From Patescibacteria group bacterium (GTDB lineage: Bacteria > Patescibacteriota > Minisyncoccia > UBA6257 > JACRHW01), in the NCBI GenBank assembly GCA_028865725.1, contig JAGWJP010000002.1, positions 168,050-232,049 on the forward strand: a stretch of 64,000 nt of DNA, given 5' to 3'. The translations under genes were made by a program, and so were the position numbers. The notes beneath the pieces were generated by a model, which ran no database searches, was not told the origin of the DNA, and was given only the letters and a program-made list of their open reading frames with translations. How positions within the stretch are numbered: position 1 is the first letter of the stretch; every line of letters starts with the position of its first letter. Positions 7,063-49,532 of this stretch are shown in pieces.

Positions 7063-8481
7063 TTATTTTTTTAACCGACGCTTAATCTCGTCAAATATCT
7101 TTGCGAGAGGAATTACCTCTTGCGATCCGGTGTGCATATCACGCAAAATAATCGTTTCATCCAACACCTCGCGTTGCCCTAAAATAAGGACAAACTCTGC
7201 GCCCAGACGGTCCGCGATTTTAAGCTGTGCCTTAATAGAATCACGGCCGAATGATTCTGCGCTTGAGATTTTTTCTTTTCTCAAACCCTCACGAAGCTTC
7301 ATCAACTTCCGTTTTGCGATCACACCAAGTTGCACTAAAAAGACTTTCACAGGCGCCTCACTTCGCTGAGAGGAAGTACTCCCTTCAATACAATCAACCA
7401 CACGATCAACCCCAATCGCACCCCCGAGGCCAGGCGTGTCTTTCCCCCCTAAAAGCTTTACCAAATCGTCATAGCGACCTCCGCCTGCAAGGGCAAGTGG
7501 AGAAATCTCTGTGCCCTTCTTTTCCTCGCTCTCTCCGCTTCCAATCTTCTCTACTTCTTGTGCACTCACTTGTTTTTCAAAAAAAACAGGATTTGAAAAT
7601 ACCTCAAACACGGTACGGGTATAATAATCAAGTCCGCGCACAAGATAAGGAGAGAGGGCGTAGGGGATCTCCATTTCGTCAAGAAATTCCAATACTCCTT
7701 TGAAATGCGTACTGCAGGCAGAACACAAGTTATCGAGCATCGCAGGTGCGCCGCTTCGCAAATCTATACACTCTTTTTCTTTACAATCGAGAAGCCGGAA
7801 TGGGTTTACCTGATAACGATTTTTACAGTCTTTGCATAGCTTGGAAAGCTTATTGCGATAATAATCCTTAAGCTTGTTGCGCCAGACCGTGCGGCAGGAT
7901 TTGTCCCCAATGCTGTTTATCTCGACCACAAGATCCTTCACTTTAAGCTGTTTCAAGATATTGAAAATGACGACAATCACTTCCGCGTCATAAGAAGGAC
8001 TGCTGTCCCCCAACACTTCGAGACCGAATTGCGTAAGCTGGCGCAACCGTCCTCGCTGAGGCGCCTCGTGGCGAAACATAGGGCCCATATAAAATAGCTT
8101 CACCGGCTGGGGAAGATTTTGCATGCCGTGCTCAATATACGCACGCGCCACAGGAGCCGTCCCTTCCGGACGCAACGTCAGTTTTGTTCCTCCCTCTGTC
8201 TTGAACGTATACATCTGCTTTTCAATGATATCGGTTGCCTCGCCCACTGCGCGCAAAAAAAGTTCTGTGTCTTCAAAAATTGGCGTTTCAATGTGTCCAT
8301 ACTGATAATATCTGGCATATTCAAAAGCAATGTCCTTTACCTTTTCACGCAATACTTCATCTTCGGGCAACACATCCTTTACTCCGCGTGCCGTTTTAGG
8401 AATCCATTTTACTTTTTTCACTGCTATCTCTTTTTTAGGTGCAGATTTTGGTTTCAATTTGGTAGTCGTTTTTTTCTTCAT
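7063..8481 (-). CDS. hisS: Histidyl-tRNA synthetase with a Lys-rich N-terminal extension
   Basis: TARGVKDVLPED start region and RPEGTAPVARAY (class II aaRS motif 2 region); C-terminal anticodon-binding domain; an extra lysine-rich segment of about 40 aa at the N-terminus. Confidence 0.9.
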   Translation of the reverse strand: MKKKTTTKLKPKSAPKKEIAVKKVKWIPKTARGVKDVLPEDEVLREKVKDIAFEYARYYQYGHIETPIFEDTELFLRAVGEATDIIEKQMYTFKTEGGTKLTLRPEGTAPVARAYIEHGMQNLPQPVKLFYMGPMFRHEAPQRGRLRQLTQFGLEVLGDSSPSYDAEVIVVIFNILKQLKVKDLVVEINSIGDKSCRTVWRNKLKDYYRNKLSKLCKDCKNRYQVNPFRLLDCKEKECIDLRSGAPAMLDNLCSACSTHFKGVLEFLDEMEIPYALSPYLVRGLDYYTRTVFEVFSNPVFFEKQVSAQEVEKIGSGESEEKKGTEISPLALAGGGRYDDLVKLLGGKDTPGLGGAIGVDRVVDCIEGSTSSQRSEAPVKVFLVQLGVIAKRKLMKLREGLRKEKISSAESFGRDSIKAQLKIADRLGAEFVLILGQREVLDETIILRDMHTGSQEVIPLAKIFDEIKRRLKK

Positions 8482-8523
8482 AGTATGTAACGCGAAAAGC
8501 TACATAAGCCCCGCGCATTCTTA

Positions 8524-9099
8524 TTAATTCGTACGATAATCATTTGCCGCAAACACATGAGCCTCGGGAAGCGGCCAAAGCCGGAAACGAACCAACCCGA
8601 TAATATTGGCGGTAGGAACGGCTCCCCACGACCGAGAATCATAACTAAACTCTCTGTTGTCCCCCATAACAAAATACTGATCACTCTCTAATTTAAGAGT
8701 GAGATCCCCCTCTGTTTGTTCATGGGCAGGAAGATACGGTTCTCCGAGAGTGTGCGCCTTTCCTTGTGTATCAGTAACCGTCACCATGCCATCATGCACT
8801 TGTACGGTTTCTCCGGGAAGCCCGATAATACGTTTAATATAAAAGGTAGTATAATCTTTGGGAAATCGAAATACGATCACTTCACCACGCTCTGGTTTTC
8901 GAAATCGATACGCCAGCTCATCAATAATCAAATAATTTCCGCTCGTGAATGTGGGCTCCATACTCGATCCTTTTACCAAAAACGGCTGAGCAATGAAATA
9001 TCGTACCAAAAACACGGCAAGAAGCGATACCACCAACACTTCTGCAAGTTCTGCTACAAAAAGAAGAATTTGACGCATGATAAAAAAATTAAAATTCAA
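8524..9099 (-). CDS. lepB: Signal peptidase I
   Basis: N-terminal TM segment; GSSMEPTF (catalytic Ser box) and GDNREFSYDSRSWG (box E). Confidence 0.85.
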   Translation of the reverse strand: MNFNFFIMRQILLFVAELAEVLVVSLLAVFLVRYFIAQPFLVKGSSMEPTFTSGNYLIIDELAYRFRKPERGEVIVFRFPKDYTTFYIKRIIGLPGETVQVHDGMVTVTDTQGKAHTLGEPYLPAHEQTEGDLTLKLESDQYFVMGDNREFSYDSRSWGAVPTANIIGLVRFRLWPLPEAHVFAANDYRTN

Positions 9100-9206
9100 A
9101 TCTTAAAATTAAAAAATACGGTTGTGAAAATGGCCTCCCTTTTCACATTTCCCTACTTTTGCCTTTTGATTTTTCCCTTTTGAATTATTCAACAAATGTG
9201 GCATAA

Positions 9207-9833
9207 TTGTACCACATAATTCCCAATATACAAATGGAACCTTTTTTAGTGGTTGGGCTTGGCAATGCGGAAAAACGGTACGAACATACCTACCATAATG
9301 TAGGTTTTCTTGCACTTGATCGCCTTGCAGCACGTTTTTCGCTCGAGCCCACCCCTCTCACCCTCCCTATACGCTGGAGCTTAAAAAAAATAACAGCCAT
9401 CATGTACACACTCACCGATGAATCACGTGGCGCACACTACATGTTTGCGAAACCGCAATGCTATATGAACGAGTCGGGCATCACAGTTGCAGCACTCATG
9501 AGACGATATGCCGATCAATACCATCTGACCTCAAAAGGCCTGTATGTCATTCACGATGATTCTGATATTGCTCTCGGATCCTACAAGCTCAAGTGGGGAG
9601 GAAACTCCGGTGGACACAATGGTATCGAATCCGTCATCCGTTTCCTGGGTACCCAAGAGTTTTGGCATCTCAAAATTGGCATTCGCAATATGATGGACCC
9701 TATACGCGTAAAAGCTGAGAAACTAGTACTGCAACACATCGGTTCTCAAGAACAACACGCCCTCGACACCACTATTTCTGAAGCACTCGATTCCCTCGAA
9801 GAGCAGTGCGGGCTTTCTTCCCGAAAATCTTGA
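9207..9833 (+). CDS. pth: Peptidyl-tRNA hydrolase
   Basis: VVGLGNAEKRYEHTYHNVGF matches the Pth signature (GLGNPG..Y..TRHNVGF); likely start at the internal Met at about 9234. Confidence 0.85.
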   Translation: MYHIIPNIQMEPFLVVGLGNAEKRYEHTYHNVGFLALDRLAARFSLEPTPLTLPIRWSLKKITAIMYTLTDESRGAHYMFAKPQCYMNESGITVAALMRRYADQYHLTSKGLYVIHDDSDIALGSYKLKWGGNSGGHNGIESVIRFLGTQEFWHLKIGIRNMMDPIRVKAEKLVLQHIGSQEQHALDTTISEALDSLEEQCGLSSRKS

Positions 9834-9899
9834 CGAAAAAAGGAAGTATTGCTTAAATAAGTTTAGTCCCTATCTCCTCTCCCGCAAAGGAGCGCAACA

Positions 9900-10607
9900 A
9901 TGCGAAGAGTCATTCTTCTTTGTTTTGCGTGGTATCTCATTGTTGGCGAACAACCCGCATACGCTCAAATATCCACCTGTACTGCAACACAAAAAGCCTA
10001 TCAGTGCACCTATCTCATTGGATCGGGATCAATGACGATAGGAAGTGCGTGGATAGTCGCTACCCCCAAAAAACAGGGTATTGTCGTTCTCACTGCTGCG
10101 CACTGGATCCCCAAGGAAGATCAGAGGGCCACACGCCCTGGCGCATTCTGGATTACCCACCCTGCATGGCCTCAGGGAACACGCGTCCCTTTGACCTTGC
10201 TCGACTATGATATTAGGGCCGACATTGCTCTGCTTATTTCACCACCGCGCTATCATCTTCCCGGCCTCTCTCTCGCAAACACACCGCTATATCATTACGA
10301 TCGCGTCGTCTTCATAAAAAACGGAGCACACATTCCCCCCCACACTCCAACGTTCGTATGGTTTCTCGGAACATCCACCATCCGCATGAGAGATCACAAA
10401 AATACCTACGAGCAGCGAAGAGACATCTTTCTCGCACATCCTGTTCCTTTCTGTTCCGGCGCCCCCATCCTCAATTCTCGCGGCCGCGTAGTCGCAATGA
10501 TGGTTGAACTTGAGTGGATGACTCACAATCATATCGTGACTAATTTTGGACTTGGGGTCACTCTTCGTGCCCTCAAAACATTCCTTTACACACATCGCAT
10601 ACATTAA
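9900..10607 (+). CDS. Secreted trypsin-like (S1 family) serine protease
   Basis: Signal peptide; TAAHWI (His), DIALLI (Asp) and CSGAPIL (Ser) triad-like motifs. Confidence 0.55.
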   Translation: MRRVILLCFAWYLIVGEQPAYAQISTCTATQKAYQCTYLIGSGSMTIGSAWIVATPKKQGIVVLTAAHWIPKEDQRATRPGAFWITHPAWPQGTRVPLTLLDYDIRADIALLISPPRYHLPGLSLANTPLYHYDRVVFIKNGAHIPPHTPTFVWFLGTSTIRMRDHKNTYEQRRDIFLAHPVPFCSGAPILNSRGRVVAMMVELEWMTHNHIVTNFGLGVTLRALKTFLYTHRIH

Positions 10608-10637
10608 TCAACACACTGAGCCTTCGCTCGGTTTTTT

Positions 10638-11114
10638 TTACTGCGTACGCATACAAAGGGCAAATACCGCGATACCAAATGCCACAGATACATTAAGCGA
10701 CTCCTTCTTCCCTCGCATAGGGATTTCGAGCATCATATCTGCGCGCATACGCACACTCTGCGATACGCCGCTCACCTCATTGCCCACAACAAGAGCACAC
10801 GGGCGTTGGGGATCGAGTGGCACATAATCAAACAACGAAATGCTCCTCTTCCCCTGCTCGAGGACGATCACGGAAATACCGTCCTTTTGAAGACGCGCGA
10901 CAAGACGCGCAATATTTGGTACATGCTCCCACGGCACAAACTCCTCTGCACCAAGTGAGACCTTGATAAATCGCGGATCAGGATTTTGAAAGCGATCGAC
11001 AGGAAGCGGTGTGATGCCGCAGCAATAGATTTTTTCTACCCCTGCGGCATCAGCCGTCCGAAAGATCGAACCTACATTATGAATACTGCGAATATTATCG
11101 AGAATAACGATCAT
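10638..11114 (-). CDS. trmL: SpoU-family RNA 2'-O-methyltransferase, TrmL-like
   Basis: 158 aa; MIVILDNIRSIHNVGSIFRTADAAGV SpoU/TrmH fold motifs; size matches TrmL. Confidence 0.65.
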   Translation of the reverse strand: MIVILDNIRSIHNVGSIFRTADAAGVEKIYCCGITPLPVDRFQNPDPRFIKVSLGAEEFVPWEHVPNIARLVARLQKDGISVIVLEQGKRSISLFDYVPLDPQRPCALVVGNEVSGVSQSVRMRADMMLEIPMRGKKESLNVSVAFGIAVFALCMRTQ

Positions 11115-12604
11115 TAAAGTATGAGAGTCGCTTTTTCTTCGTCGGAGAGGGTATAGTAGGGAATAAGCACTTTCTCAAGAATTTCTAGCTTTTCTTCTCG
11201 AGAGAGAAACTGATCAGGGCCCCGACTTGGTTTCCCTGCGCGAAGCCACTTATTATAACTCTCAAAAAATTTAACAAACGGAAGAGAAATGAGCACAATG
11301 TCCGCAACGGGTCTTTTGATAAGTGCACTATATGTTTCGCTGCCCAGTCTCTTGCGCCCCTTATTTGTTCGTCTTTCTTTATGAGAAAGGAACCTACCTG
11401 TTACGAGCGTAAGCTGAACGCCTATTCTTCGTTTTGTTGTTATGTACTCCTCTCGCGGCATGTCATCTCCTTCGATCGCGATGCCTCGTGGTGTGATATT
11501 CACAAGAACGCGAAAATCATACTTCAATTGAGCATCTTCAAAAATATTTGCTCCCTCGAAACGAAAAAGAAGCTGCGGATTGTTATGTTGAATACGAGTC
11601 AAGAAACTTCGCACCATATATTCAGCCAAAAGACCTTCTTTATCTCTTGTCTGCTCTAAACATTCCAAATCTTTAGCTAAAAATTGATAACCCATGGTAA
11701 ACAAATTTAATCGAGAAAACGTAGCGTTAAGCTCTTCATCAAAATTACGCTCAAGCTTGCGCCGTGCTTCGGTAATATCGGAAAGCTTCCGAACCTTCCT
11801 CCACACGCTCCGTGGCACCGAACGGTCTGGCGCATACTGAATACCCCACTCATAGTCGGCAACAATATCACCCCATGCAATAGTATGGCGTCCCGCTTCA
11901 TCCAAGACAAACAATCTATTCGTATTGTCATCATACCGCACAATCTTCCTATCCAACTGTTCATCTGCCGGATAATCTTTATGAGCATCGATATCCTGTA
12001 AACGTGTTTTGAGTTCCTTCTTGATGACTTCACGTTCATGTAATACAAGACTCATGGAGGGCACGGCAGCAGGAGATTTTTTTACATGTTCCATTTGAAC
12101 AGATCCTTCTGATACATGTTTTTTCTGTTGTCTTTTCCTCGCTTTTTTTCGCAATCTTTTTTCATGCCGCGTAAGATCTTCCCGCGACAAACTACTCCTA
12201 TACTCTTCTTCCCATTGCGGACGCAAGATTCTGCGAATTTCGTTCGTCAGACCTGCAAAACGAGTCACGTCTTTCTTTCGTCCTTTATACTCAAAAAGCC
12301 GTTGCCATATCTCACGGGCTTCCGGACCAAGAAGATCCTGATGATCAGCAAACCACTCGATCACAAAACGATAAAAAGGCCTCCTTGGACTTGTTTCAAC
12401 TTTTTTTTCTACTAAATCTTCTTTGGACTTTTCAGCTTCTTCTGCCACGATTTCATCAAATCGATGGCTCAATACCAGCGTGCGCTCAAGCAACTCCTCT
12501 TCGCGATGAAGAATAGGGTCCGTATCGCGCAAAAGCCCGAATTCGCCTTCCTGTGTCTCGGCTTTTTTTGATTGTCCAGTTTTTTCTCTCGGCAATATTT
12601 CCAT
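11114..12604 (-). CDS. Large hypothetical protein (496 aa), translationally coupled to the trmL-like gene
   Basis: Stop overlaps the trmL-like ATG (TAATG arrangement); charged N-terminal half; no recognisable domain. Confidence 0.5.
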   Translation of the reverse strand: MEILPREKTGQSKKAETQEGEFGLLRDTDPILHREEELLERTLVLSHRFDEIVAEEAEKSKEDLVEKKVETSPRRPFYRFVIEWFADHQDLLGPEAREIWQRLFEYKGRKKDVTRFAGLTNEIRRILRPQWEEEYRSSLSREDLTRHEKRLRKKARKRQQKKHVSEGSVQMEHVKKSPAAVPSMSLVLHEREVIKKELKTRLQDIDAHKDYPADEQLDRKIVRYDDNTNRLFVLDEAGRHTIAWGDIVADYEWGIQYAPDRSVPRSVWRKVRKLSDITEARRKLERNFDEELNATFSRLNLFTMGYQFLAKDLECLEQTRDKEGLLAEYMVRSFLTRIQHNNPQLLFRFEGANIFEDAQLKYDFRVLVNITPRGIAIEGDDMPREEYITTKRRIGVQLTLVTGRFLSHKERRTNKGRKRLGSETYSALIKRPVADIVLISLPFVKFFESYNKWLRAGKPSRGPDQFLSREEKLEILEKVLIPYYTLSDEEKATLIL

Positions 12605-12737
12605 ATCCCCATTGTACTTGCTTCATCCAAAAAGAAAAGAAGCTACTGCAATCGCAGTCATACGAGAACACTTGCCTCTGCACAGAACATGGGGTACGCT
12701 CATACGGGCAGTCGAACGATAAAGGAAGTGTCGAAAT

Positions 12738-16863: not shown

Positions 16864-17044
16864 ATGCGTGGTGCAACAAAGCAGTTCGCTCGCGCGTTAC
16901 GTTTTTTCAGTTGCTTTTCTCATCACCCTGGGGTCGAAACATCTGGTTCCTCGACCAATACCATCTCCGATACATACCGGAGTATCGCCTACTAGGATTG
17001 TCTTCTTCATAGGATGAATAAGAACAAACGTATTCTAGTTAAAA

Positions 17045-18752
<1,708 letters not shown>

Positions 18753-29933: not shown

Positions 29934-31565
29934 TTACTTCTTCGTTCTTGATTTCGGCGTCACCCAGTAGCCCATATAATGCCCGAGCATCAGGCGCGTC
30001 TGCGCTTCGAGTGCGGGAATGCTCCCAAGCGTCACCGCCGTAAGCGGCGTGATAAACCATTGCAAAAACATCCACACGTACTTGAACTTGCCATAGTTCA
30101 CCGGCTTTGGCGGTAAGAGCCACATGCTCAAGACCGCCGATGTCACAAGCCCGAACATCGCGAGTGTCATAATGTCACGGGTGAGATACGGAAGATTGTA
30201 GGAGAGAAGGGTCACTCGAAAGCTCTTCGGGCCCACAAAGACAGGAAGCCACCCCAGCAAAAACATCATGATGCTATTCGTCGCCCATGACCAAAACCCA
30301 TCGACAAGCTGAAGCGTGTGAAAAAACTTATGTTTCCATGACAATCGCTTATTGCGCACCGCATTAAACACAAAATAAGGAAGATTCTCCACTCCGTACC
30401 CCCAGCGACGCTGCTGTTTATATTGATTCACAATCGTACCCCAGAACTTCGGCGCCACGTTTGCATCCATCGTGACAGGATAGTAGAGCGGGACCACTGT
30501 CCAATCGCCGTTAAAATGCAAGAAGAGCTGATAAAAAATGCGCGAATCCTCTGACACCATGTTCGTCTGCCAGCAACCGATTTCCACGAGCGGCTGAAAT
30601 GCCATCGAGTGTGAAGAAAACGTAATTAAGCGCTCGGGGCGTGCCTGTTGCGTCATCTGCCAAAATGTAGAACCAAAACTCAGAACGCGGGCAAACGCAG
30701 GCGCCTCCCAAATGTTATTCGTAAAAAGCGGGATAGGCTGAAAACTCGAACGAAGCGGCTTCTCCGCCGTAAGATAGTGGTAGGTGAGACAGTGAAAATA
30801 GCCTGGCATCACATGGGTGTCCACATCAAACACCGATACCACAATGCGCTCATAGGGAATGCCGAGGGGATCAATAACCTTGCGCTGCGCTTCACGCGCC
30901 GCCCATGTTTCGTTTGATCCCTTGCCCGGCATCTCTCCTTCGATATCCGCCGGATGATGACTAATGACAAAATGAGAAAACCGCACGCCGTAAGCCTCTT
31001 TGATGCGCTGTCCCACCTCACGCGCCGCCTCTCCTGCACGCTCCTCAAGCCCCAACACAATAATCATCTTCTCTTGCGGATACTTTGTCGCGAGAAGCGC
31101 CTCCATACTTTCTTGTACCACCTCGAACGGCTCGTTATACATGGGAAGGATCACCAAATGCCATATCTCACCCCACCGAGACACAGGAACCTTATACTGC
31201 GAAGGAGAAAGCGCATCCAGTTTCGCGTTCCAATCCGTGTTCATGTGTTCAAATGTCTTCCGGTATCCAACCCGCAAATGCACAGACATGTAAACCGTTT
31301 TCAGAAACCAATACACATCAAAAAAAATAATAAACACGGCGACAAAAAAAGGCACCACAAAACTCAAACCAATGAGCACGATGAGCGTGCTCCAACTCAA
31401 AAGTCCGGGTATTACTTCAAGCGTGCGATACCAAAAACGCTCGGAAGATCCGCGCGGAAGCTCTGATGCCCTCCCGATTTTGAGATAGTTTAACTGTGCC
31501 ATAACAATTGCTCTTGGTTTTACTATACAAAAATTATATCTGCAAGAAAAGAAAAAAGGCATCAT
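29934..31565 (-). CDS. Processive family-2 glycosyltransferase (cellulose/chitin-synthase-like), integral membrane
   Basis: VILPMYNE, DVDT (DxD) and QQRRW (QxxRW) motifs; multiple TM helices N- and C-terminal; probable start at 31502. Confidence 0.7.
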   Translation of the reverse strand: MMPFFFSCRYNFCIVKPRAIVMAQLNYLKIGRASELPRGSSERFWYRTLEVIPGLLSWSTLIVLIGLSFVVPFFVAVFIIFFDVYWFLKTVYMSVHLRVGYRKTFEHMNTDWNAKLDALSPSQYKVPVSRWGEIWHLVILPMYNEPFEVVQESMEALLATKYPQEKMIIVLGLEERAGEAAREVGQRIKEAYGVRFSHFVISHHPADIEGEMPGKGSNETWAAREAQRKVIDPLGIPYERIVVSVFDVDTHVMPGYFHCLTYHYLTAEKPLRSSFQPIPLFTNNIWEAPAFARVLSFGSTFWQMTQQARPERLITFSSHSMAFQPLVEIGCWQTNMVSEDSRIFYQLFLHFNGDWTVVPLYYPVTMDANVAPKFWGTIVNQYKQQRRWGYGVENLPYFVFNAVRNKRLSWKHKFFHTLQLVDGFWSWATNSIMMFLLGWLPVFVGPKSFRVTLLSYNLPYLTRDIMTLAMFGLVTSAVLSMWLLPPKPVNYGKFKYVWMFLQWFITPLTAVTLGSIPALEAQTRLMLGHYMGYWVTPKSRTKK

Positions 31566-31586
31566 GATGCCTTCTTGAAGCGTACA

Positions 31587-32213
31587 CTACCTCCGAAACA
31601 CCTTTTCCTTCACTCCATCAGGAGTAACAAGGTGCACTCGTATCTGCCCGCCTGTAGTAATATTTACTTTTGAAATGGACTGCATAATAGTGTGCATTAG
31701 CGCAATTGCCTCTCCCTCAGTATAGATCTTTCCTGCGTGCATCATTAATGCGACACAGGCCGACTCTGCTCCTATCCCTATTCCTGCATACCTTTCTTTT
31801 GTTCGTGAAAACACAAGATTCTTATCGGAAAACTGATAAAGGAAACATTTGTGATTGCGGGGGTCACATCCCGCAAGAAAAAACTCGATCTCTTTGTGAG
31901 AATGCTTTTTCAAAAATTCGCATACTCGCCTGACCTTTTTCGCAACAGAAAGATTCTTTTCTCGCACCTGCTTCATTTCCTCTTCACAACTCTCTACCAC
32001 TTCAATAAGCAAGGAAAGGTTCCCGGATATACCCAAAACAAGATGGGGATCAAGCATAAATACCTTCCGGTAAGATTCCGTGGTAATTTTATCTCCGGCA
32101 TTGATACGCCCGTCACTCCCCACAATCACTACAGGTACTTCTTTGGTGCCTGTCTGAAGCGTGGCGAGAAACCCTACGATCGCAGTCACTATGCTCATCC
32201 TTTCTTTGTGCAA
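31587..32213 (-). CDS. HslV/proteasome beta-like Ntn-hydrolase
   Basis: (M)TAIVGF...VVIVGSDGR...KVFML...LGISGNLS resembles the HslV N-terminus. An in-frame GTG at 32189 preceded by AAGGA would put Thr directly after the initiator, as in HslV. Confidence 0.6.
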   Translation of the reverse strand: MHKERMSIVTAIVGFLATLQTGTKEVPVVIVGSDGRINAGDKITTESYRKVFMLDPHLVLGISGNLSLLIEVVESCEEEMKQVREKNLSVAKKVRRVCEFLKKHSHKEIEFFLAGCDPRNHKCFLYQFSDKNLVFSRTKERYAGIGIGAESACVALMMHAGKIYTEGEAIALMHTIMQSISKVNITTGGQIRVHLVTPDGVKEKVFRR

Positions 32214-32317
32214 TGAACTAATTTCACCCTACCGCGAACAAAAAAAACGTGCAAATAGCCTTCTACGGGCTTACGCCCGGGTCTAATAAAAAAGAGGGGG
32301 ACTCCCTCTTAAAATAA

Positions 32318-33235
32318 TCAATCCCTTTCTTCCAATTCCAGTGCGTCCTGTTTCTGCGTATCATCTGCCGCGGCTTGTTTTTCCTTTTTCTTTTGCCTTT
32401 TCAATTTTCTTGCCGTCTTTTTTTCTTCTTCTTGCTGGCGCACGATTTCCGCAAGCGTTTCCTTCAACCCCGCGCGCAACATGTGCCATGGCCCATGCGT
32501 GCGGGCCGCAACCTCGGCATAGCGTTTCTCAAGCACCGCGTCGCGATCCAGTTGTACAATCTCAAGATAAATTTCATTTCCATACTTTTTTGCACACGCC
32601 GCGCCAAACCGAAGCATCAATTCAATGCTATTAACACGGGATAACGTGTGAAGATACTCTTCAAAACTCTCAAGCTGTGCACCGATCCACAACGACTCCC
32701 GAGGCGTACTCGCTTTTTCTGTTTTTCTGCTCCGCGATGGCGCCTTTGTTTCGGTGCGCACCAGCGGGCCGCTTATAAATCCGGAGGCGGGAATCGAAAT
32801 ACCAGTATGCGGCACCACCACGACCTCATCAGTAGATGGATCGCCCGTGATACGCACGAATACCATCGCCGCATCAATCTCCGGCCGCTTCGGATCTTTC
32901 AGGTGTGATGCAAGCAAGGATCCAATCTTTTCTCCCACGCCCAACGCATGGACATTTTCATATGATACCTCGAGTGCCTCACCTTTCGCGATCGCTGAAG
33001 CCGCTCTCTGCAGCTCGAACCCATCAGAGCCAAAACTAATCACAAAAATGCGATCCAGCACGCGCTTGATGCGTTGGCGATAATCATCGGAACATGCAAG
33101 CATCAAAATGCTTCCACCAAGATTCAATACTACGGCGGGATAGCTTTCCCGCACATCTCTTGCAGCGCGCCGCCTCTTTGCGTGCACGATATCTGTAAGC
33201 TTACGACACATGGAACGACACCTCCTGAGGCCCAA
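32318..33235 (-). CDS. Proteasome-like subunit lacking N-terminal Thr (alpha-like or inactive beta-like), with a charged C-terminal tail
   Basis: PAVVLNLGGSILMLACSDD and RPEIDAAMVFVRITGDPSTDEVVVV resemble the proteasome core-fold blocks (RP-x-G...G-x-D....DPSG); no Thr1; Lys/Glu-rich tail of about 50 aa; overlaps the upstream beta gene. Confidence 0.45.
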   Translation of the reverse strand: MGLRRCRSMCRKLTDIVHAKRRRAARDVRESYPAVVLNLGGSILMLACSDDYRQRIKRVLDRIFVISFGSDGFELQRAASAIAKGEALEVSYENVHALGVGEKIGSLLASHLKDPKRPEIDAAMVFVRITGDPSTDEVVVVPHTGISIPASGFISGPLVRTETKAPSRSRKTEKASTPRESLWIGAQLESFEEYLHTLSRVNSIELMLRFGAACAKKYGNEIYLEIVQLDRDAVLEKRYAEVAARTHGPWHMLRAGLKETLAEIVRQQEEEKKTARKLKRQKKKEKQAAADDTQKQDALELEERD

Positions 33236-33977
33236 GCGAGCTCATAATATAAGCGTGGCACGTTCCTCCGGATCCGGAATCAAACCGAAATGCCATATGA
33301 AAGAGGCGGGCCAAGCGCTGGTAAAGTTCTTTTAGGGTATAGTCTCTGCCTGCTTCTACCGCAAGAAGAGCTTCGATCGCTGAATAACCGCTTCCGGTAC
33401 CCCCGCAATCCCCCACATCGTGGATGTAGCCTCCTGGATAAAACTCAAAAATACGACACCGGCCCTTGTCTTCGTTGTCCTGTCCCTCATAGCCCGCGAG
33501 AAGAAAGTATATGGGAAGAAAAGGTACCTGTCTCATCATATTTTGAAGCATCGTGACCTTGCCGCGTAGGGAGAGCTTCTGGTCTGGTGTATCCGCCATA
33601 TCATCATAGTGAGCTACACTAAGACTATAGATCTTTCCCATCCGGTCTAGGGCAGATGCGAGACCAGCTCCACCAAGCACAAGGGTGCTATCAATCATAC
33701 GCATTTTTTTCGCTTCTTCCTCAACAATATGATGCCCTGCGGATGTTCTTCCATCAGATGCAATCACGACTGCGGGGAGCGTAATCATTGCGTCTTCCTT
33801 GCCTTCAGGATTGAGTTCCGTTTCCGGGACTTTCAATCCAAAACGCATCGCGATCACCGTCGTTCCTGTGGTAACCTGCCTCTGGTACAGACCATCGCCA
33901 GACGTCCGTGGCATGGCACGCACGGATTCTCCAAGCGCGGTAAGTGCTCGCTCGAAAAGATTTTCGACCAATGACAT
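33201..33977 (-). CDS. Proteasome beta subunit-like Ntn-hydrolase with N-terminal propeptide
   Basis: ...QVTTG|TTVIAMRFG (Gly-Thr processing site), AVVIASDGRTSAG (Asp17 region), EEEAKKMRMI (Lys33 region), GGTGSGYSAIEALLA and SGSGG blocks all align to archaeal/actinobacterial beta subunits. Confidence 0.7.
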   Translation of the reverse strand: MSLVENLFERALTALGESVRAMPRTSGDGLYQRQVTTGTTVIAMRFGLKVPETELNPEGKEDAMITLPAVVIASDGRTSAGHHIVEEEAKKMRMIDSTLVLGGAGLASALDRMGKIYSLSVAHYDDMADTPDQKLSLRGKVTMLQNMMRQVPFLPIYFLLAGYEGQDNEDKGRCRIFEFYPGGYIHDVGDCGGTGSGYSAIEALLAVEAGRDYTLKELYQRLARLFHMAFRFDSGSGGTCHAYIMSSLGPQEVSFHVS

Positions 33978-34087
33978 CGGCTTTTCCCCTTTGTTTTGTT
34001 TTCAAGTTACTTACGCTACCCTACCATAATATTTACAAAAACCGCAAGCGTTTATGCGGTTTTTTGATGCTTTGCTGGGACAAATAA

Positions 34088-36427: not shown

Positions 36428-36514
36428 GCCCAGGTGGTGAAATTGGTATACACGTATCCTTGAGGTGGATATGCCCGTAAGGGTGTGGAGGTTCGAGTCC
36501 TCTCCTGGGCACCA
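36428..36514 (+). tRNA. tRNA-Leu (anticodon GAG), CCA encoded
   Basis: Acceptor GCCCAGG/CCTGGGC; anticodon arm TATCC-TTGAGGT-GGATA; long variable arm; T arm GGAGG-TTCGAGT-CCTCT; ends ACCA. Confidence 0.85.
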
Positions 36515-36664
36515 AGACAAAACTTTTCGCAACAACACCAATTTTTTGTACACCTCATGCAACGCATGGAGGTAGTTTGATGTAGTATATTGGATTTGAA
36601 AAATCAAAAAGACGCTAAAGAATTTGAAAAAACGAGTGAAATCCCCTATGATAAACGCATCATG

Positions 36665-36752
36665 CGCCGCCGTGGTGGAATTGGTAGACACGACAGACTT
36701 AAGATCTGTTGCCCTCCAAGGCGTGTCGGTTCGAGTCCGACCGGCGGTACCA
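36665..36752 (+). tRNA. tRNA-Leu (anticodon TAA), CCA encoded
   Basis: Acceptor GCCGCCG/CGGCGGT; anticodon arm ACAGA-CTTAAGA-TCTGT; long variable arm; T arm GTCGG-TTCGAGT-CCGAC; ends ACCA. Confidence 0.85.
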
Positions 36753-36769
36753 AGTTAAATCTCACTCTT

Positions 36770-37618
36770 ATGGAATTCTTAAGGAGCATTTTTAACGGGC
36801 CGATACAAAAACCAAAAGAACCAACCACGGAAGAAGCAAAAAAGATTGAATCTACTCGAAGAGATTCACCAGAAGAAACAAAAGCTCTTCGTGAAGAAAC
36901 ACAAGCAGAAACGTTATTGCGCTTACGAGATAAAATAAGCCTACGTAAATTTAAAGGAGGTGGTGCAAATGCAACCTTTGCGGTAACGCTCAAAGATGAT
37001 GGCTTAGGAATCTTTAAACCAAAAAGTGGGGAAAACAAAAACCTTCGTGACAACGTACAAGCAGGTACCTACTTCAAACGTGCGCGTGCCGCATATCTTG
37101 TGGATAAGTGTTTGGGATTTGGGATTGTTCCCCCTGTCTCTATTCGAGAAATTGATGGCGAAATTGGTAGTATTCAACAATTCATTGAGAATGCATCGAC
37201 CTATACAGAACTCTCCTTTGCTGATCGCGGTGAACTACGTTCCACGCATTATGATCAACTCATAGCATTGTGGCTTTTTGACATTATTATTTTCAACTCC
37301 GACCGAAGCCCCAGAAACCTCCTCGTTTCGAAAAATGGCATTCATGCGATCGACAATGATTTAAGTTTTGGAAATGATTCCTTACGCCATCAAATCGGAT
37401 ACTATTATAATGCAAAAATTCCATCTCATCTTATTCAAAAATTAGAACGTTTTACTTCTTCTGAAACCCGAAAACAAAGCTTAAGAGCTCTCCTTCTCGA
37501 ACTCCTTCCTGAAAAAGAAGTCAATGCATGTATATCCCGCATTGAACGCGTCGCGCGCCTTGTGCAAGCGGGAACTATTACGAAACAATTGAAAGATATC
37601 TTAACCCAATATGAGTAA
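36770..37618 (+). CDS. Atypical protein-kinase-like (PKL-fold) protein
   Basis: Gly-rich loop GGGANATFAV, GIFKPK (VAIK-like Lys), catalytic-loop-like FNSDRSPRNLLV (D-x4-N as in HRDLKPEN), IDNDLSFG (DFG-like). The track ORF start overlaps tRNA-Leu; the Met at 36770 is the likely start. Confidence 0.5.
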   Translation: MEFLRSIFNGPIQKPKEPTTEEAKKIESTRRDSPEETKALREETQAETLLRLRDKISLRKFKGGGANATFAVTLKDDGLGIFKPKSGENKNLRDNVQAGTYFKRARAAYLVDKCLGFGIVPPVSIREIDGEIGSIQQFIENASTYTELSFADRGELRSTHYDQLIALWLFDIIIFNSDRSPRNLLVSKNGIHAIDNDLSFGNDSLRHQIGYYYNAKIPSHLIQKLERFTSSETRKQSLRALLLELLPEKEVNACISRIERVARLVQAGTITKQLKDILTQYE

Positions 37619-47920: not shown

Positions 47921-48247
47921 ATGAAACACACTGTGCGTATTGTAGGCCTCTCATCCTTCTTGCTCCTCTTCCCGCTGCTTGCATTAGCCGATCAGTTTAC
48001 AGGATTTCAAAATCCGCTTTCCTCAAATAGCGTCTTTGATATCATTAACAATGTCACCGCCTTCTTGCAGCCCTTCGCTGCTGCGGTCGTCGTGATTATG
48101 ATTTTAGTCGGCGCATTCCAGATTCTCACCGGAAACCCTTCTCAAATAACCACAGGGAGAAAAACAATTCTGTGGGCCGTGATCGGATTTGCTATCATTT
48201 TCCTGACACCGATTATTATCGGAGCCATCCAGGAATTTTTTAAGTAG
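47921..48247 (+). CDS. TrbC/VirB2-like small secreted two-TM protein, copy 1
   Basis: Signal peptide + hydrophobic helix + short polar loop (TGNPSQITTGRK) + second hydrophobic helix (ILWAVIGFAIIFL); paralogous to the next three ORFs. Confidence 0.5.
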   Translation: MKHTVRIVGLSSFLLLFPLLALADQFTGFQNPLSSNSVFDIINNVTAFLQPFAAAVVVIMILVGAFQILTGNPSQITTGRKTILWAVIGFAIIFLTPIIIGAIQEFFK

Positions 48248-48330
48248 CGTTTTGTTCTGTTTGAGACCGCGCCGCCTCTGCTATCCCCTTGTACCGAAAA
48301 TCAAAACCGTTATAATAAAAGTGAACACGT

Positions 48331-48666
48331 ATGAAGACACCACGCGCACGAACACTTACCTTCTGGTTTACGCTCGCCTCGTTTTTCGGAGCCCTTCCTG
48401 CGTTTGCTGACTTGGGTCCGAATCAACAAAAGATTATTGATCTCGTCTACTCGGTCGCGGATTTCATGGGCGGGCTTTTTCTTGCCGTGTCCGTGTGCAT
48501 GTTTCTCTATACAGGGTATCTCTATTTTACCGCGCAGGGAGACCCCGGAAAGATCACCAAGGTCAATCAGGCCCTCCTCTGGGCTGTAGTAGGCACTGGA
48601 ATAGGGCTTCTCGCGTTTGTGATGCCGCAAGTTATCAATACATTTTTAAGCAACGCGACTCAATAA
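48331..48666 (+). CDS. TrbC/VirB2-like small secreted two-TM protein, copy 2
   Basis: Signal peptide; Y-x-TA-x-GDP-x-K-I...ALLWAVVGTGIGLLAFVMPQVI-x-x-FL conserved with copies 3 and 4. Confidence 0.5.
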   Translation: MKTPRARTLTFWFTLASFFGALPAFADLGPNQQKIIDLVYSVADFMGGLFLAVSVCMFLYTGYLYFTAQGDPGKITKVNQALLWAVVGTGIGLLAFVMPQVINTFLSNATQ

Positions 48667-48735
48667 ACTTAGCATTTCGATAGAATGGTAACGAAAAGGT
48701 CGATGATTATCTATATTTAACTTCACTCAATCACA

Positions 48736-49095
48736 ATGAAAAAAACAATTATAAGCCTTGCTGCACTAACCCTCGGATCACTCCCCATGCTCGCAGCCGC
48801 GCAAGCACAAGGTCCAAGCGCGGGCGGTGGAAACTATGTAACACAAATTGGTAGCCCAAGAACAGTTCTTCAAAATGTTACCAATACCATTGCCTCTCTT
48901 TTCCTCTTTGCTTCCGTTATCTATCTTGTGCTTGCCGGATTTCAATACCTTACCGCAGGAGGAGATAGTGAAAAGATGGGCAAAGCAAAAACAAACTTTA
49001 CCTATTCCATTATTGGTATTGCCATAGGTCTTCTTGCTTATGCGCTTCCGGGTCTTATCAGCAGCTTTCTTCAAGGTAGTGGAACACTCCAATAA
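48736..49095 (+). CDS. TrbC/VirB2-like small secreted two-TM protein, copy 3
   Basis: Signal peptide (cleavage after AAAQAQG); same conserved block (YLTAGGDSEKMGKAKTNFTYSIIGIAIGLLAYALPGLI). Confidence 0.5.
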   Translation: MKKTIISLAALTLGSLPMLAAAQAQGPSAGGGNYVTQIGSPRTVLQNVTNTIASLFLFASVIYLVLAGFQYLTAGGDSEKMGKAKTNFTYSIIGIAIGLLAYALPGLISSFLQGSGTLQ

Positions 49096-49190
49096 TACAA
49101 AAGAACTGCCTCAGACTTACACAAACCCCTCAATCAGGGGTTTGTTGGTTTTTTGTATTCTTCTCTGGTATACTTAAGGAAAATCCTATC

Positions 49191-49532
49191 ATGAAATACG
49201 TCAAAACATTTTTGTGCTATGCATTCTACGCAGCCCCGTTATTTGCAAACGCTGCCTCTATCCCTACTCAATTTGTCCAAACAGCTCCCATCCCCATCCT
49301 ATTTGTCCAATCCATTCTCGATTTTATTGCCTCCTTGTTCCTGTTTGGATCAGTAATTTATCTGCTTTATGCAGGATATCTCTTTTTTATTGCAGAAGGA
49401 GATCCCAAAAAAATAGACACCGCAAAAAACAATCTGAGGTGGAGCATCATAGGAATCGGCGTCGGCCTTCTTGCGTATGTATTGCCTCAGGTAATCAAAA
49501 CATTTCTCGATTCTTCCGGATTAGTACGGTAA
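49191..49532 (+). CDS. TrbC/VirB2-like small secreted two-TM protein, copy 4
   Basis: Signal peptide; FIAEGDPKKIDTAKNNLRWSIIGIGVGLLAYVLPQVIKTFL conserved block. Confidence 0.5.
   Translation: MKYVKTFLCYAFYAAPLFANAASIPTQFVQTAPIPILFVQSILDFIASLFLFGSVIYLLYAGYLFFIAEGDPKKIDTAKNNLRWSIIGIGVGLLAYVLPQVIKTFLDSSGLVR

Follow-up and report, generated by a model that had tools for sequence, protein, structure and literature searches.

The stretch of DNA analysed here, 64,000 nucleotides of contig JAGWJP010000002.1 (assembly GCA_028865725.1) from a Patescibacteria group bacterium, carries three consecutive minus-strand genes whose products share the proteasome fold. This whole stretch is called the window, and all positions below refer to it. 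The open reading frame (ORF) listing places the three at 33201-33977, 32318-33235 and 31587-32213, and the names p1, p2 and p3 are used for the genes at 33201-33977, 32318-33211 and 31587-32189, respectively. NCBI and Logan gene calls agree on 258 amino acids for p1 and 297 for p2, and give 200 or 203 for p3. An earlier reading of the DNA from its letters alone (the sequence-only reading) had already described three consecutive proteasome-fold genes on this strand, and the description holds: the ORF listing, Pfam family PF00227 for p1 and p3, and a family profile together with a structure model for p2 all agree with it. Since three independent Logan assemblies have 100% identical DNA over p1-p3, the cluster is not an assembly artefact; two of the three cover all three genes and the other ends inside p2. 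The G+C fraction is 0.51 in p1 and p2 and 0.446 in p3, and 0.44-0.50 in the genes of the window, which gives no clear signal of foreign origin by base composition. What is new here is a very divergent PrcBA lineage in the Candidate Phyla Radiation (CPR), orphaned at the level of the locus, with a remodelled alpha subunit and a lineage-specific second beta subunit.

The p1-p2 pair

Gene p1 (33201..33977, minus strand) encodes a predicted PrcB-type 20S beta subunit of 258 residues, an assignment that draws on PF00227, NCBIfam models, PDB matches and alignments of orthologues. The match to PF00227 has 43.8 bits (E=3e-11; gathering cutoff 22.4), that to TIGR03634 an E-value of 8.6e-12, and that to TIGR03690 an E-value of 1.6e-9 with 37.9 bits, which does not reach the equivalog cutoff of 191.9. 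The best NCBIfam models, both for p1 and for p3, are 20S beta families; judged by these scores, the two proteins are members of the family yet go unrecognised as equivalogs. The best PDB matches of p1 are PrcB of Mycobacterium tuberculosis and Rhodococcus. They are weak (~30 bits), and in them D75 and K91 align with the catalytic Asp17 and Lys33. The ATG of p1 is preceded by the Shine-Dalgarno (SD) sequence AAAGGGGA.

The first 38 residues of p1 (33864-33977, minus strand) are the predicted propeptide, with T39 as Thr1. The catalytic set read from the alignments comprises G38|T39-T40 (Thr1), D75 (Asp17), K91 (Lys33) and G-S196-G (Ser129), and in the C-terminal block D233, S236 and G237 correspond to Asp166, Ser169 and Gly170. 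Among the orthologues T39, K91, the G-S-G motif, D233 and S236 are invariant, and all catalytic positions are invariant or nearly so. The sequence-only reading had listed a propeptide of ~38 residues, Thr1, Asp17, Lys33 and a GSG..SGG block; every one of these motifs is present and aligned to catalytic positions. Its suggestion that p1 is a catalytically competent beta subunit is likewise supported, the six catalytic residues being intact and near-invariant in the orthologues. The identity of Thr1 was called into question by a pairwise PDB alignment that set strand S1 of p1 at residues 63-68. In every orthologue x|Thr-Thr-Ile/Val comes first, then a hairpin with 0 to ~25 extra residues, and then the invariant P-A-V-[VI]-I-A-S-D-G-R. 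This pattern settles the question: T39 is Thr1, and p1 has an extension of 20 residues in its S1-S2 hairpin. The sequence is compatible with autocatalytic cleavage of the propeptide, the 38-residue leader ending in Gly directly before Thr-Thr.

Gene p2 (32318..33211, minus strand, 297 residues) most likely starts at ATG 33211, which has AGGAGG 9 nucleotides upstream and gives an overlap of 11 nucleotides with p1. The sequence-only reading was right about the overlap and about a K/E-rich tail, and its start, TTG 33235, gives way to this ATG. By itself p2 is undetectable as a proteasome-like protein. It has no match in Pfam, NCBIfam or the PDB, and BLASTP against p1 and p3 is empty too; single-sequence word-index searches with p2 and with p1 returned only p2 and p1 themselves. 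It took a profile of its family and a model of its structure to assign it as an alpha subunit. An exhaustive HMMER search of 1.84 billion representatives yielded six homologues of p2, plus one spurious repeat protein. The family profile (A1; 6 homologues) matched bacterial proteasome alpha subunits alone in the PDB, with E-values of 1e-6 for 1q5q_A (Rhodococcus) and ~4e-6 for M. tuberculosis PrcA; the next matches after the PrcA chains have E >0.6.

The AlphaFold2 (AF2) model of p2, made from a 10-sequence alignment, has a mean predicted local distance difference test score (pLDDT) of 91.3 and a predicted template modelling score (pTM) of 0.83, and includes an N-terminal helix and an alpha/beta sandwich. 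The top Foldseek matches to this model are all proteasome alpha chains, and the best, with template modelling (TM) scores of 0.77-0.79, are to M. tuberculosis PrcA. On profile and model together, p2 is an alpha subunit of the bacterial (PrcA) type, without a Thr1 nucleophile. From the letters alone it had been described as alpha-like or an inactive beta, without an N-terminal Thr. The first of these is borne out by profile and model; an inactive beta is rejected, because the family profile matches only PrcA and the fold matches are all alpha chains. Three elements stand out in the model on this strand: helix H0 at residues 3-21, a disordered charged insert at residues 153-171 (~32678-32764; pLDDT <50), and a K/E-rich C-terminal helix of 55 residues at 242-296 (~32321-32488).

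Sequence and model thus identify p1 and p2 as prcB and prcA, a gene pair of the kind found in bacterial (PrcA/PrcB) proteasomes. Like p1-p2, the genes of the actinobacterial system (M. tuberculosis, Rhodococcus erythropolis) overlap and have the order prcB-prcA, and actinobacterial PrcB, like p1, has an N-terminal propeptide before Thr-Thr-Ile/Val and a full catalytic set. Actinobacterial PrcA provides the sole PDB matches of the alpha family profile, and it is on M. tuberculosis PrcA that the p2 model superposes best. There are also differences. Identity between PrcA and p2 is 9-15% in the Foldseek structural alignments, and p2 has a polybasic N-terminus in addition to the charged disordered insert and the C-terminal helix. 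Unlike PrcB, one beta of the window, p1, has the 20-residue hairpin extension, and the other, p3, has no propeptide and carries the changes Ser129Ile, Asp166Asn and Ser169Thr. Nor does the locus contain pup, dop/pafA or mpa.

A second beta-type gene, p3

Gene p3 (31587..32189, minus strand) encodes a second beta-type subunit of 200 residues without a propeptide, as judged from its GTG start, PF00227, BLAST matches and a neighbour-joining (NJ) tree. The sequence-only reading had drawn attention to an internal GTG that would put Thr right behind the initiator. This start, GTG 32189, reads Met-Thr-Ala-Ile-Val-Gly-Phe, has the SD sequence GAAAGGA in front of it with an 8-nucleotide spacer, and is the start that NCBI annotates as well. 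The protein matches PF00227 with 48.2 bits (E=1.3e-12; gathering cutoff 22.4) and the archaeal beta model with an E-value of 2e-10, and scores 21.9 bits against TIGR03690 (equivalog cutoff 191.9). It retains Thr1, Asp17 (D26), Lys33 (K42) and the glycine-rich loops, and it has substitutions of Ser129 to Ile, Asp166 to Asn and Ser169 to Thr (alignment A3). The best BLAST match is the beta subunit of a related locus, L014 (GCA_016217555.1), with 34% identity and 111 bits, against 24% identity and 58 bits (E=8e-15) to p1. In the NJ tree (200 bootstraps) the Patescibacteria betas form one clade (99.5%), nested among the betas of conventional Pup-proteasomes, and p3 lies within the subclade of loci of the window's type (orphan-type subclade, 99.5%), paired with the L014 beta (94.5%). 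These two also have an equally short hairpin. A metagenome scan with p3 returned no relative. Its alignments and its place in the tree make p3 a PrcB-type beta that lacks a propeptide and is partly degenerate. It probably arose as a xenologue or an old paralogue, and not by recent copying of p1.

A different origin had been proposed from the letters alone, namely that p3 resembles HslV. Like p3, HslV (ClpQ) has no propeptide, and its Thr1 is exposed by removal of Met. In contrast to HslV, p3 is longer (200 residues), nests among the 20S betas and scores marginally against HslV models, and the window has no HslU. The HslV models TIGR03692 and NF003964 give E-values of 1e-3 to 3e-3 over short partial matches, against 2e-10 for a 20S beta. 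HslV is absent from the top 50 fold matches of the AF2 model of p3, a model that was used solely to exclude an HslV-specific match. The best PDB match by sequence is chain H of 6z46 (E=8e-5), and the trace of Anbu amounts to one designed Anbu chain (E=0.56) in the PDB search. The HslV-like assignment is rejected on this evidence, the best matches of p3 being betas of its own clade.

The signals around p3 bear on its expression. A consensus scan found two terminator-like hairpins on the minus strand: one of 7 pairs followed by TTTTATT (32292..32310), directly 3' of the p2 stop, and one of 10 pairs followed by a T-run (31553..31576), between p3 and the gene for a glycosyltransferase (GT)-like membrane protein. 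The motif GGTAGGGT lies at 34018..34025 (minus strand), 40 nucleotides upstream of the p1 start, and again at 32226..32233 (minus strand), 36 nucleotides upstream of the p3 GTG. These are the only copies of the octamer in the window, both before beta genes and both just after a T-rich stretch. At least two copies also turned up in 16 of 100 shuffles, and the count is not significant by itself. The motif may be a shared -10-like promoter or regulatory element. The hairpins on both sides, the SD sequence of its own and GGTAGGGT suggest that p3 is a transcription unit of its own under control similar to that of p1.

Such independence would also suit a p3 that works outside the 20S particle altogether, as a homo-oligomeric protease of the HslV/BPH kind. 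The missing propeptide and the Thr after the initiator Met, as in HslV, agree with this, as do the separate SD sequence, the promoter-like motif and the flanking hairpins. We regard it as improbable: p3 nests in the clade of Patescibacteria PrcB-type betas, the sequence and fold searches favour a 20S beta over HslV, Ser129, Asp166 and Ser169 are all substituted, and HslU is missing from the window.

Partners and related loci

Partners of the particle were looked for in the 64 kb of the window. The precomputed Pfam matches (window ~1100-64000) include no AAA+, Pup ligase (PF03136), HslU or Anbu-partner domain. Over the whole window, tblastn with the Mpa, Dop/PafA and Pup-like proteins of two Paceibacterota loci (L005/L007, described below) gave no match. 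The sole ORF with a Walker-A motif is RecG, and none of the ORFs has the C-terminal pattern [GD]G[QE] looked for as a mark of Pup. There is no hslU next to p3 or elsewhere among the Pfam matches of the window. The Anbu partners ATP-grasp, alpha-E and transglutaminase are absent from the window genes, no dedicated Anbu/BPH profile having been run. The sequence-only reading, which had seen no AAA+ unfoldase, Pup/PafA or Anbu partners in the 64 kb, is confirmed by these empty searches. Within the window, then, the locus is not a Pup-proteasome, HslVU or Anbu locus by gene content, and it does have those features of a PrcA/PrcB core that can be tested.

Two more distant relatives of p2 lie in Paceibacterota loci that have the full Pup-proteasome complement. 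These complete loci (L005-L008; ~7350-12650) are on contig DASPGX010000019.1 of GCA_035620375.1 and on Ga0439221_105164 of JGI 3300040746. Their order is a Pup-like ORF and Dop/PafA, then beta-alpha-Mpa-GT and, at some distance, RecG. The Dop/PafA-family gene is divergently transcribed and present in single copy; it matches TIGR03688 (E=2e-76) and scores slightly better as Dop. The Pup-like ORF adjoining it encodes an acidic protein of 52-55 residues, ending in DGQ in one locus and in ERE in the other, and was recognised by eye only, with no model match. The subunits of these loci match 20S_bact_beta (1.5e-16) and 20S_bact_alpha (4e-7), and their ATPase matches pup_AAA (Mpa-type) at up to 1e-86. 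After the ATPase come a GT-like membrane protein and, further on, a convergently oriented RecG.

The window shares with the complete loci the beta-alpha pair, the GT-like membrane protein and RecG, and the betas of both fall in the single Patescibacteria clade of the tree. It differs from them in the genes between and before these. Its order is beta-alpha-[p3]-GT-like ... RecG, with L19, RluA and DoxX upstream in the place of the ligase, and p3 occupies the exact slot that mpa has in the complete loci. About ten closer loci, from metagenome-assembled genomes (MAGs) and metagenomes, have the arrangement L19-RluA-DoxX | beta-alpha | GT ... RecG, in which the GT-like gene directly follows alpha. 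None of them has a third proteasome gene, an AAA gene or a ligase, up to 10 kb as far as the contigs reach. Among the loci compared, p3 is limited to the lineage of the window. The overlap of the beta and alpha genes, 11 nucleotides in p1 and p2, recurs in the relatives.

The GT2-like membrane protein gene of the window (29934-31502, minus strand) follows the proteasome genes wherever it was seen, in complete and orphan loci alike (L005, L007, L009, L014, L019, L021 and L022). Its multi-pass product has 516-527 residues (587 by our own ORF call in L021), with PF13632 matched in L005. It is 73-75% identical in the closer relatives and 50-55% identical in the complete-locus Paceibacterota, far above the proteasome subunits. 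In one related locus, L020 (GCA_016211955.1, JACRHX010000001.1), the minus strand at 229-2226, ~8 kb from the orphan beta-alpha pair, encodes a protein of 665 residues whose one AAA domain is C-terminal; the window encodes nothing that corresponds to this protein.

Between the window and its relatives, identity is 68-74% for L19, 64-65% for RluA, 57-60% for DoxX, 69-75% for the GT-like protein and 66-67% for RecG. The corresponding values are 32-41% for p1 and 33-39% for p2. With the flanking genes 57-75% identical and the proteasome pair 32-41%, the pair changes at about twice the rate of the genes around it. Despite this fast evolution, the catalytic residues of p1 are all fixed across the clade. 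Recent horizontal gain of prcAB from an actinobacterium, which the sequence-only reading had named as a possible alternative, does not fit genes that are very divergent and a synteny that is conserved across the clade.

The alpha subunits differ between the two kinds of loci. Those of the orphan type have a K/R-rich N-terminus, where the alphas of the full loci have PSVDLxYF, a motif that presumably resembles the gate-forming N-terminus of M. tuberculosis PrcA. The charged insert is longer in the orphan-type alphas than in the full-locus ones. The orphan type also has a conserved C-terminal extension with a Pro-Trp motif, which is prolonged in p2 as the long K/E helix. Arg47 is near-invariant in the alpha family, orphan and full-locus types included, and is aligned with Lys52 of M. 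tuberculosis PrcA, which we take to be the activator-pocket lysine that binds activator C-termini.

These comparisons bear on the possibility that the window encodes the core of an ordinary Pup-proteasome, with pup, dop/pafA and mpa elsewhere in the genome and Mpa unfolding pupylated substrates as in Mycobacterium. The more distant Paceibacterota hold all components at the syntenic locus, a basic residue (R47) is kept at the activator-pocket position of alpha, and the source is a MAG of which 64 kb were searched. However, in about ten related loci the GT-like gene comes directly after alpha, and DoxX, RluA and L19 stand upstream instead of a ligase. The window shows no similarity to Mpa, PafA or Pup, and the remodelled alpha termini of the orphan clade, together with the fast evolution of both subunits, fit a change of partners. 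An ordinary Pup-proteasome therefore seems to us rather unlikely.

The rate of evolution and the restriction of p3 to a single lineage would also be expected if p3 were a decaying duplicate without function, and perhaps if the whole orphaned core were heading for loss. Three residues that support the active site are substituted in p3, and the divergence of p1 and p2 runs at about double the rate seen in the flanking genes. Against decay, p3 keeps an intact frame of 200 codons, although it is just 24-34% identical to any relative; an unconstrained ORF of such age would carry stop codons, so the intact frame counts against this explanation. Its SD sequence is well spaced, Thr1, Asp17, Lys33 and the glycine-rich loops are kept, and for the core as a whole, no catalytic residue varies among the p1 orthologues of the clade. 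We give decay little credence.

Proposed origin and working of the particle

The explanation that we favour, and hold to be fairly probable, is that p1 and p2 are a strongly diverged PrcBA core, orphaned at its locus from a Pup-proteasome ancestor, to which p3 adds a second beta in the beta rings. The pair would descend from a complete Pup-proteasome locus, with Pup, ligase and ATPase lost from the locus in the clade of the window. The alpha subunit would then have acquired its polybasic N-terminus, charged disordered insert and C-terminal extension, and the beta subunit its longer S1-S2 hairpin. In this lineage alone, p3, a relative of the beta of another member of the clade, would have come into the mpa slot, where it would be transcribed as a unit apart from the pair.

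Under the same explanation p1 and p2 would be translationally coupled and, by homology, form an alpha7-beta7-beta7-alpha7 barrel, in which p1 would cut itself at Gly38|Thr39, shed the 38-residue propeptide and so expose the Thr1 nucleophile. For p3 no autoprocessing would be needed, removal of Met being enough to expose Thr1; the Ser129/Asp166 pair that assists Thr1 is lost. Within the beta rings p3 would be a second type of beta, of weak activity or with a structural role. The particle would act without Pup. It would either degrade unfolded or disordered proteins and peptides independently of ATP, or rely on a partner whose gene lies beyond the window. A stronger form of this proposal, in which the Patescibacteria subclade has a stand-alone 20S core without Pup or a dedicated AAA+ unfoldase, the remodelled alpha replacing regulated gating and, in this genome, an active and autoprocessed p1 sharing a heteromeric beta ring with a catalytically attenuated p3, is put forward tentatively, as possible but on the whole doubtful.

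A particle containing p3 would find a parallel in Rhodococcus, whose proteasome has two beta types, and in the many archaea with two-beta proteasomes. The two-beta archaeal proteasomes (Sulfolobus acidocaldarius, 6z46), like the window, have one alpha and two beta paralogues; unlike it, they are of the archaeal type and have PAN/Cdc48 partners, and p3 is phylogenetically a bacterial-type beta.

Several points weigh against the favoured explanation. The genome could have genes for an Mpa/Cpa-type ATPase, for a Bpa-like activator or for Pup/PafA beyond the 64 kb window, and the conservation of Arg47 may be a sign that a docking partner persists. The seven-fold assembly and the incorporation of p3 are assumptions. 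The NCBIfam family-specific scores of p1 and p3 are all far under the curated equivalog cutoffs. The AF2 model of p3 is weak (two-sequence alignment, pLDDT 68) and of low confidence, even though its top 50 fold matches are all 20S subunits. Finally, p3 was seen in one strain-level population, and the other copies being 100% identical in DNA, they yield no ratio of nonsynonymous to synonymous substitution rates (dN/dS).

The sequence-only reading had gone further and considered a distinct, undescribed assembly of mixed beta, alpha and HslV character. With p1-p2 assigned as a PrcB-PrcA pair and p3 as a beta of the same clade, the locus appears to be a descendant of the Pup-proteasome system with parts stripped away, and not a machine of a new class.

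Bacterial proteasomes are known from Actinobacteria, Nitrospirae, Armatimonadetes and Verrucomicrobia (PMC5666114), and Dop/PafA additionally from NC10, Nitrospinae, Firmicutes, Proteobacteria and Planctomycetes (PMC7947786). 20S proteasomes and pupylation are regarded as essentially actinobacterial and Nitrospirae traits, with sporadic transfers elsewhere (PMC5666114; PMC7947786). CPR or Patescibacteria are unmentioned in both papers, and a full-text literature search for CPR proteasomes or pupylation returned nothing relevant. The window and its relatives, with a divergent Pup-proteasome in Paceibacterota and an apparently orphaned core in a sister group, add some of the smallest genomes among bacteria to the range of this system. 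The clade offers a natural experiment on the fate of a core whose partners for tagging and unfolding have gone from the locus: it evolves fast, the ends of its alpha are remodelled and, in the window, it has gained a second beta. Such systems will be undercounted in genome surveys, because the alpha subunit carries a hypothetical-protein annotation and is missed by Pfam and NCBIfam.

The CPR-type host that had been suspected from the DNA alone agrees with the NCBI label, Patescibacteria group bacterium, and with the 16S rRNA gene of the window. This gene (17041-18752, minus strand) is 1712 nucleotides long against a model of 1533 positions, which implies an insertion of ~180 nucleotides. Insertions in 16S rRNA genes are often seen in CPR. 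Elsewhere in the window, a pair of tRNA-Leu genes (GAG and TAA anticodons) lies at 36428-36752 on the plus strand, with 150 nucleotides between them. A mechanically called ORF of 342 codons (36590-37618) overlaps these genes; the gene called there is shorter, with 282 codons and a weak PI3_PI4_kinase match. Four tandem genes with T4SS_pilin domains (108-119 residues) are found at ~47921-49532 on the plus strand, just after a gene for a solute-binding protein.

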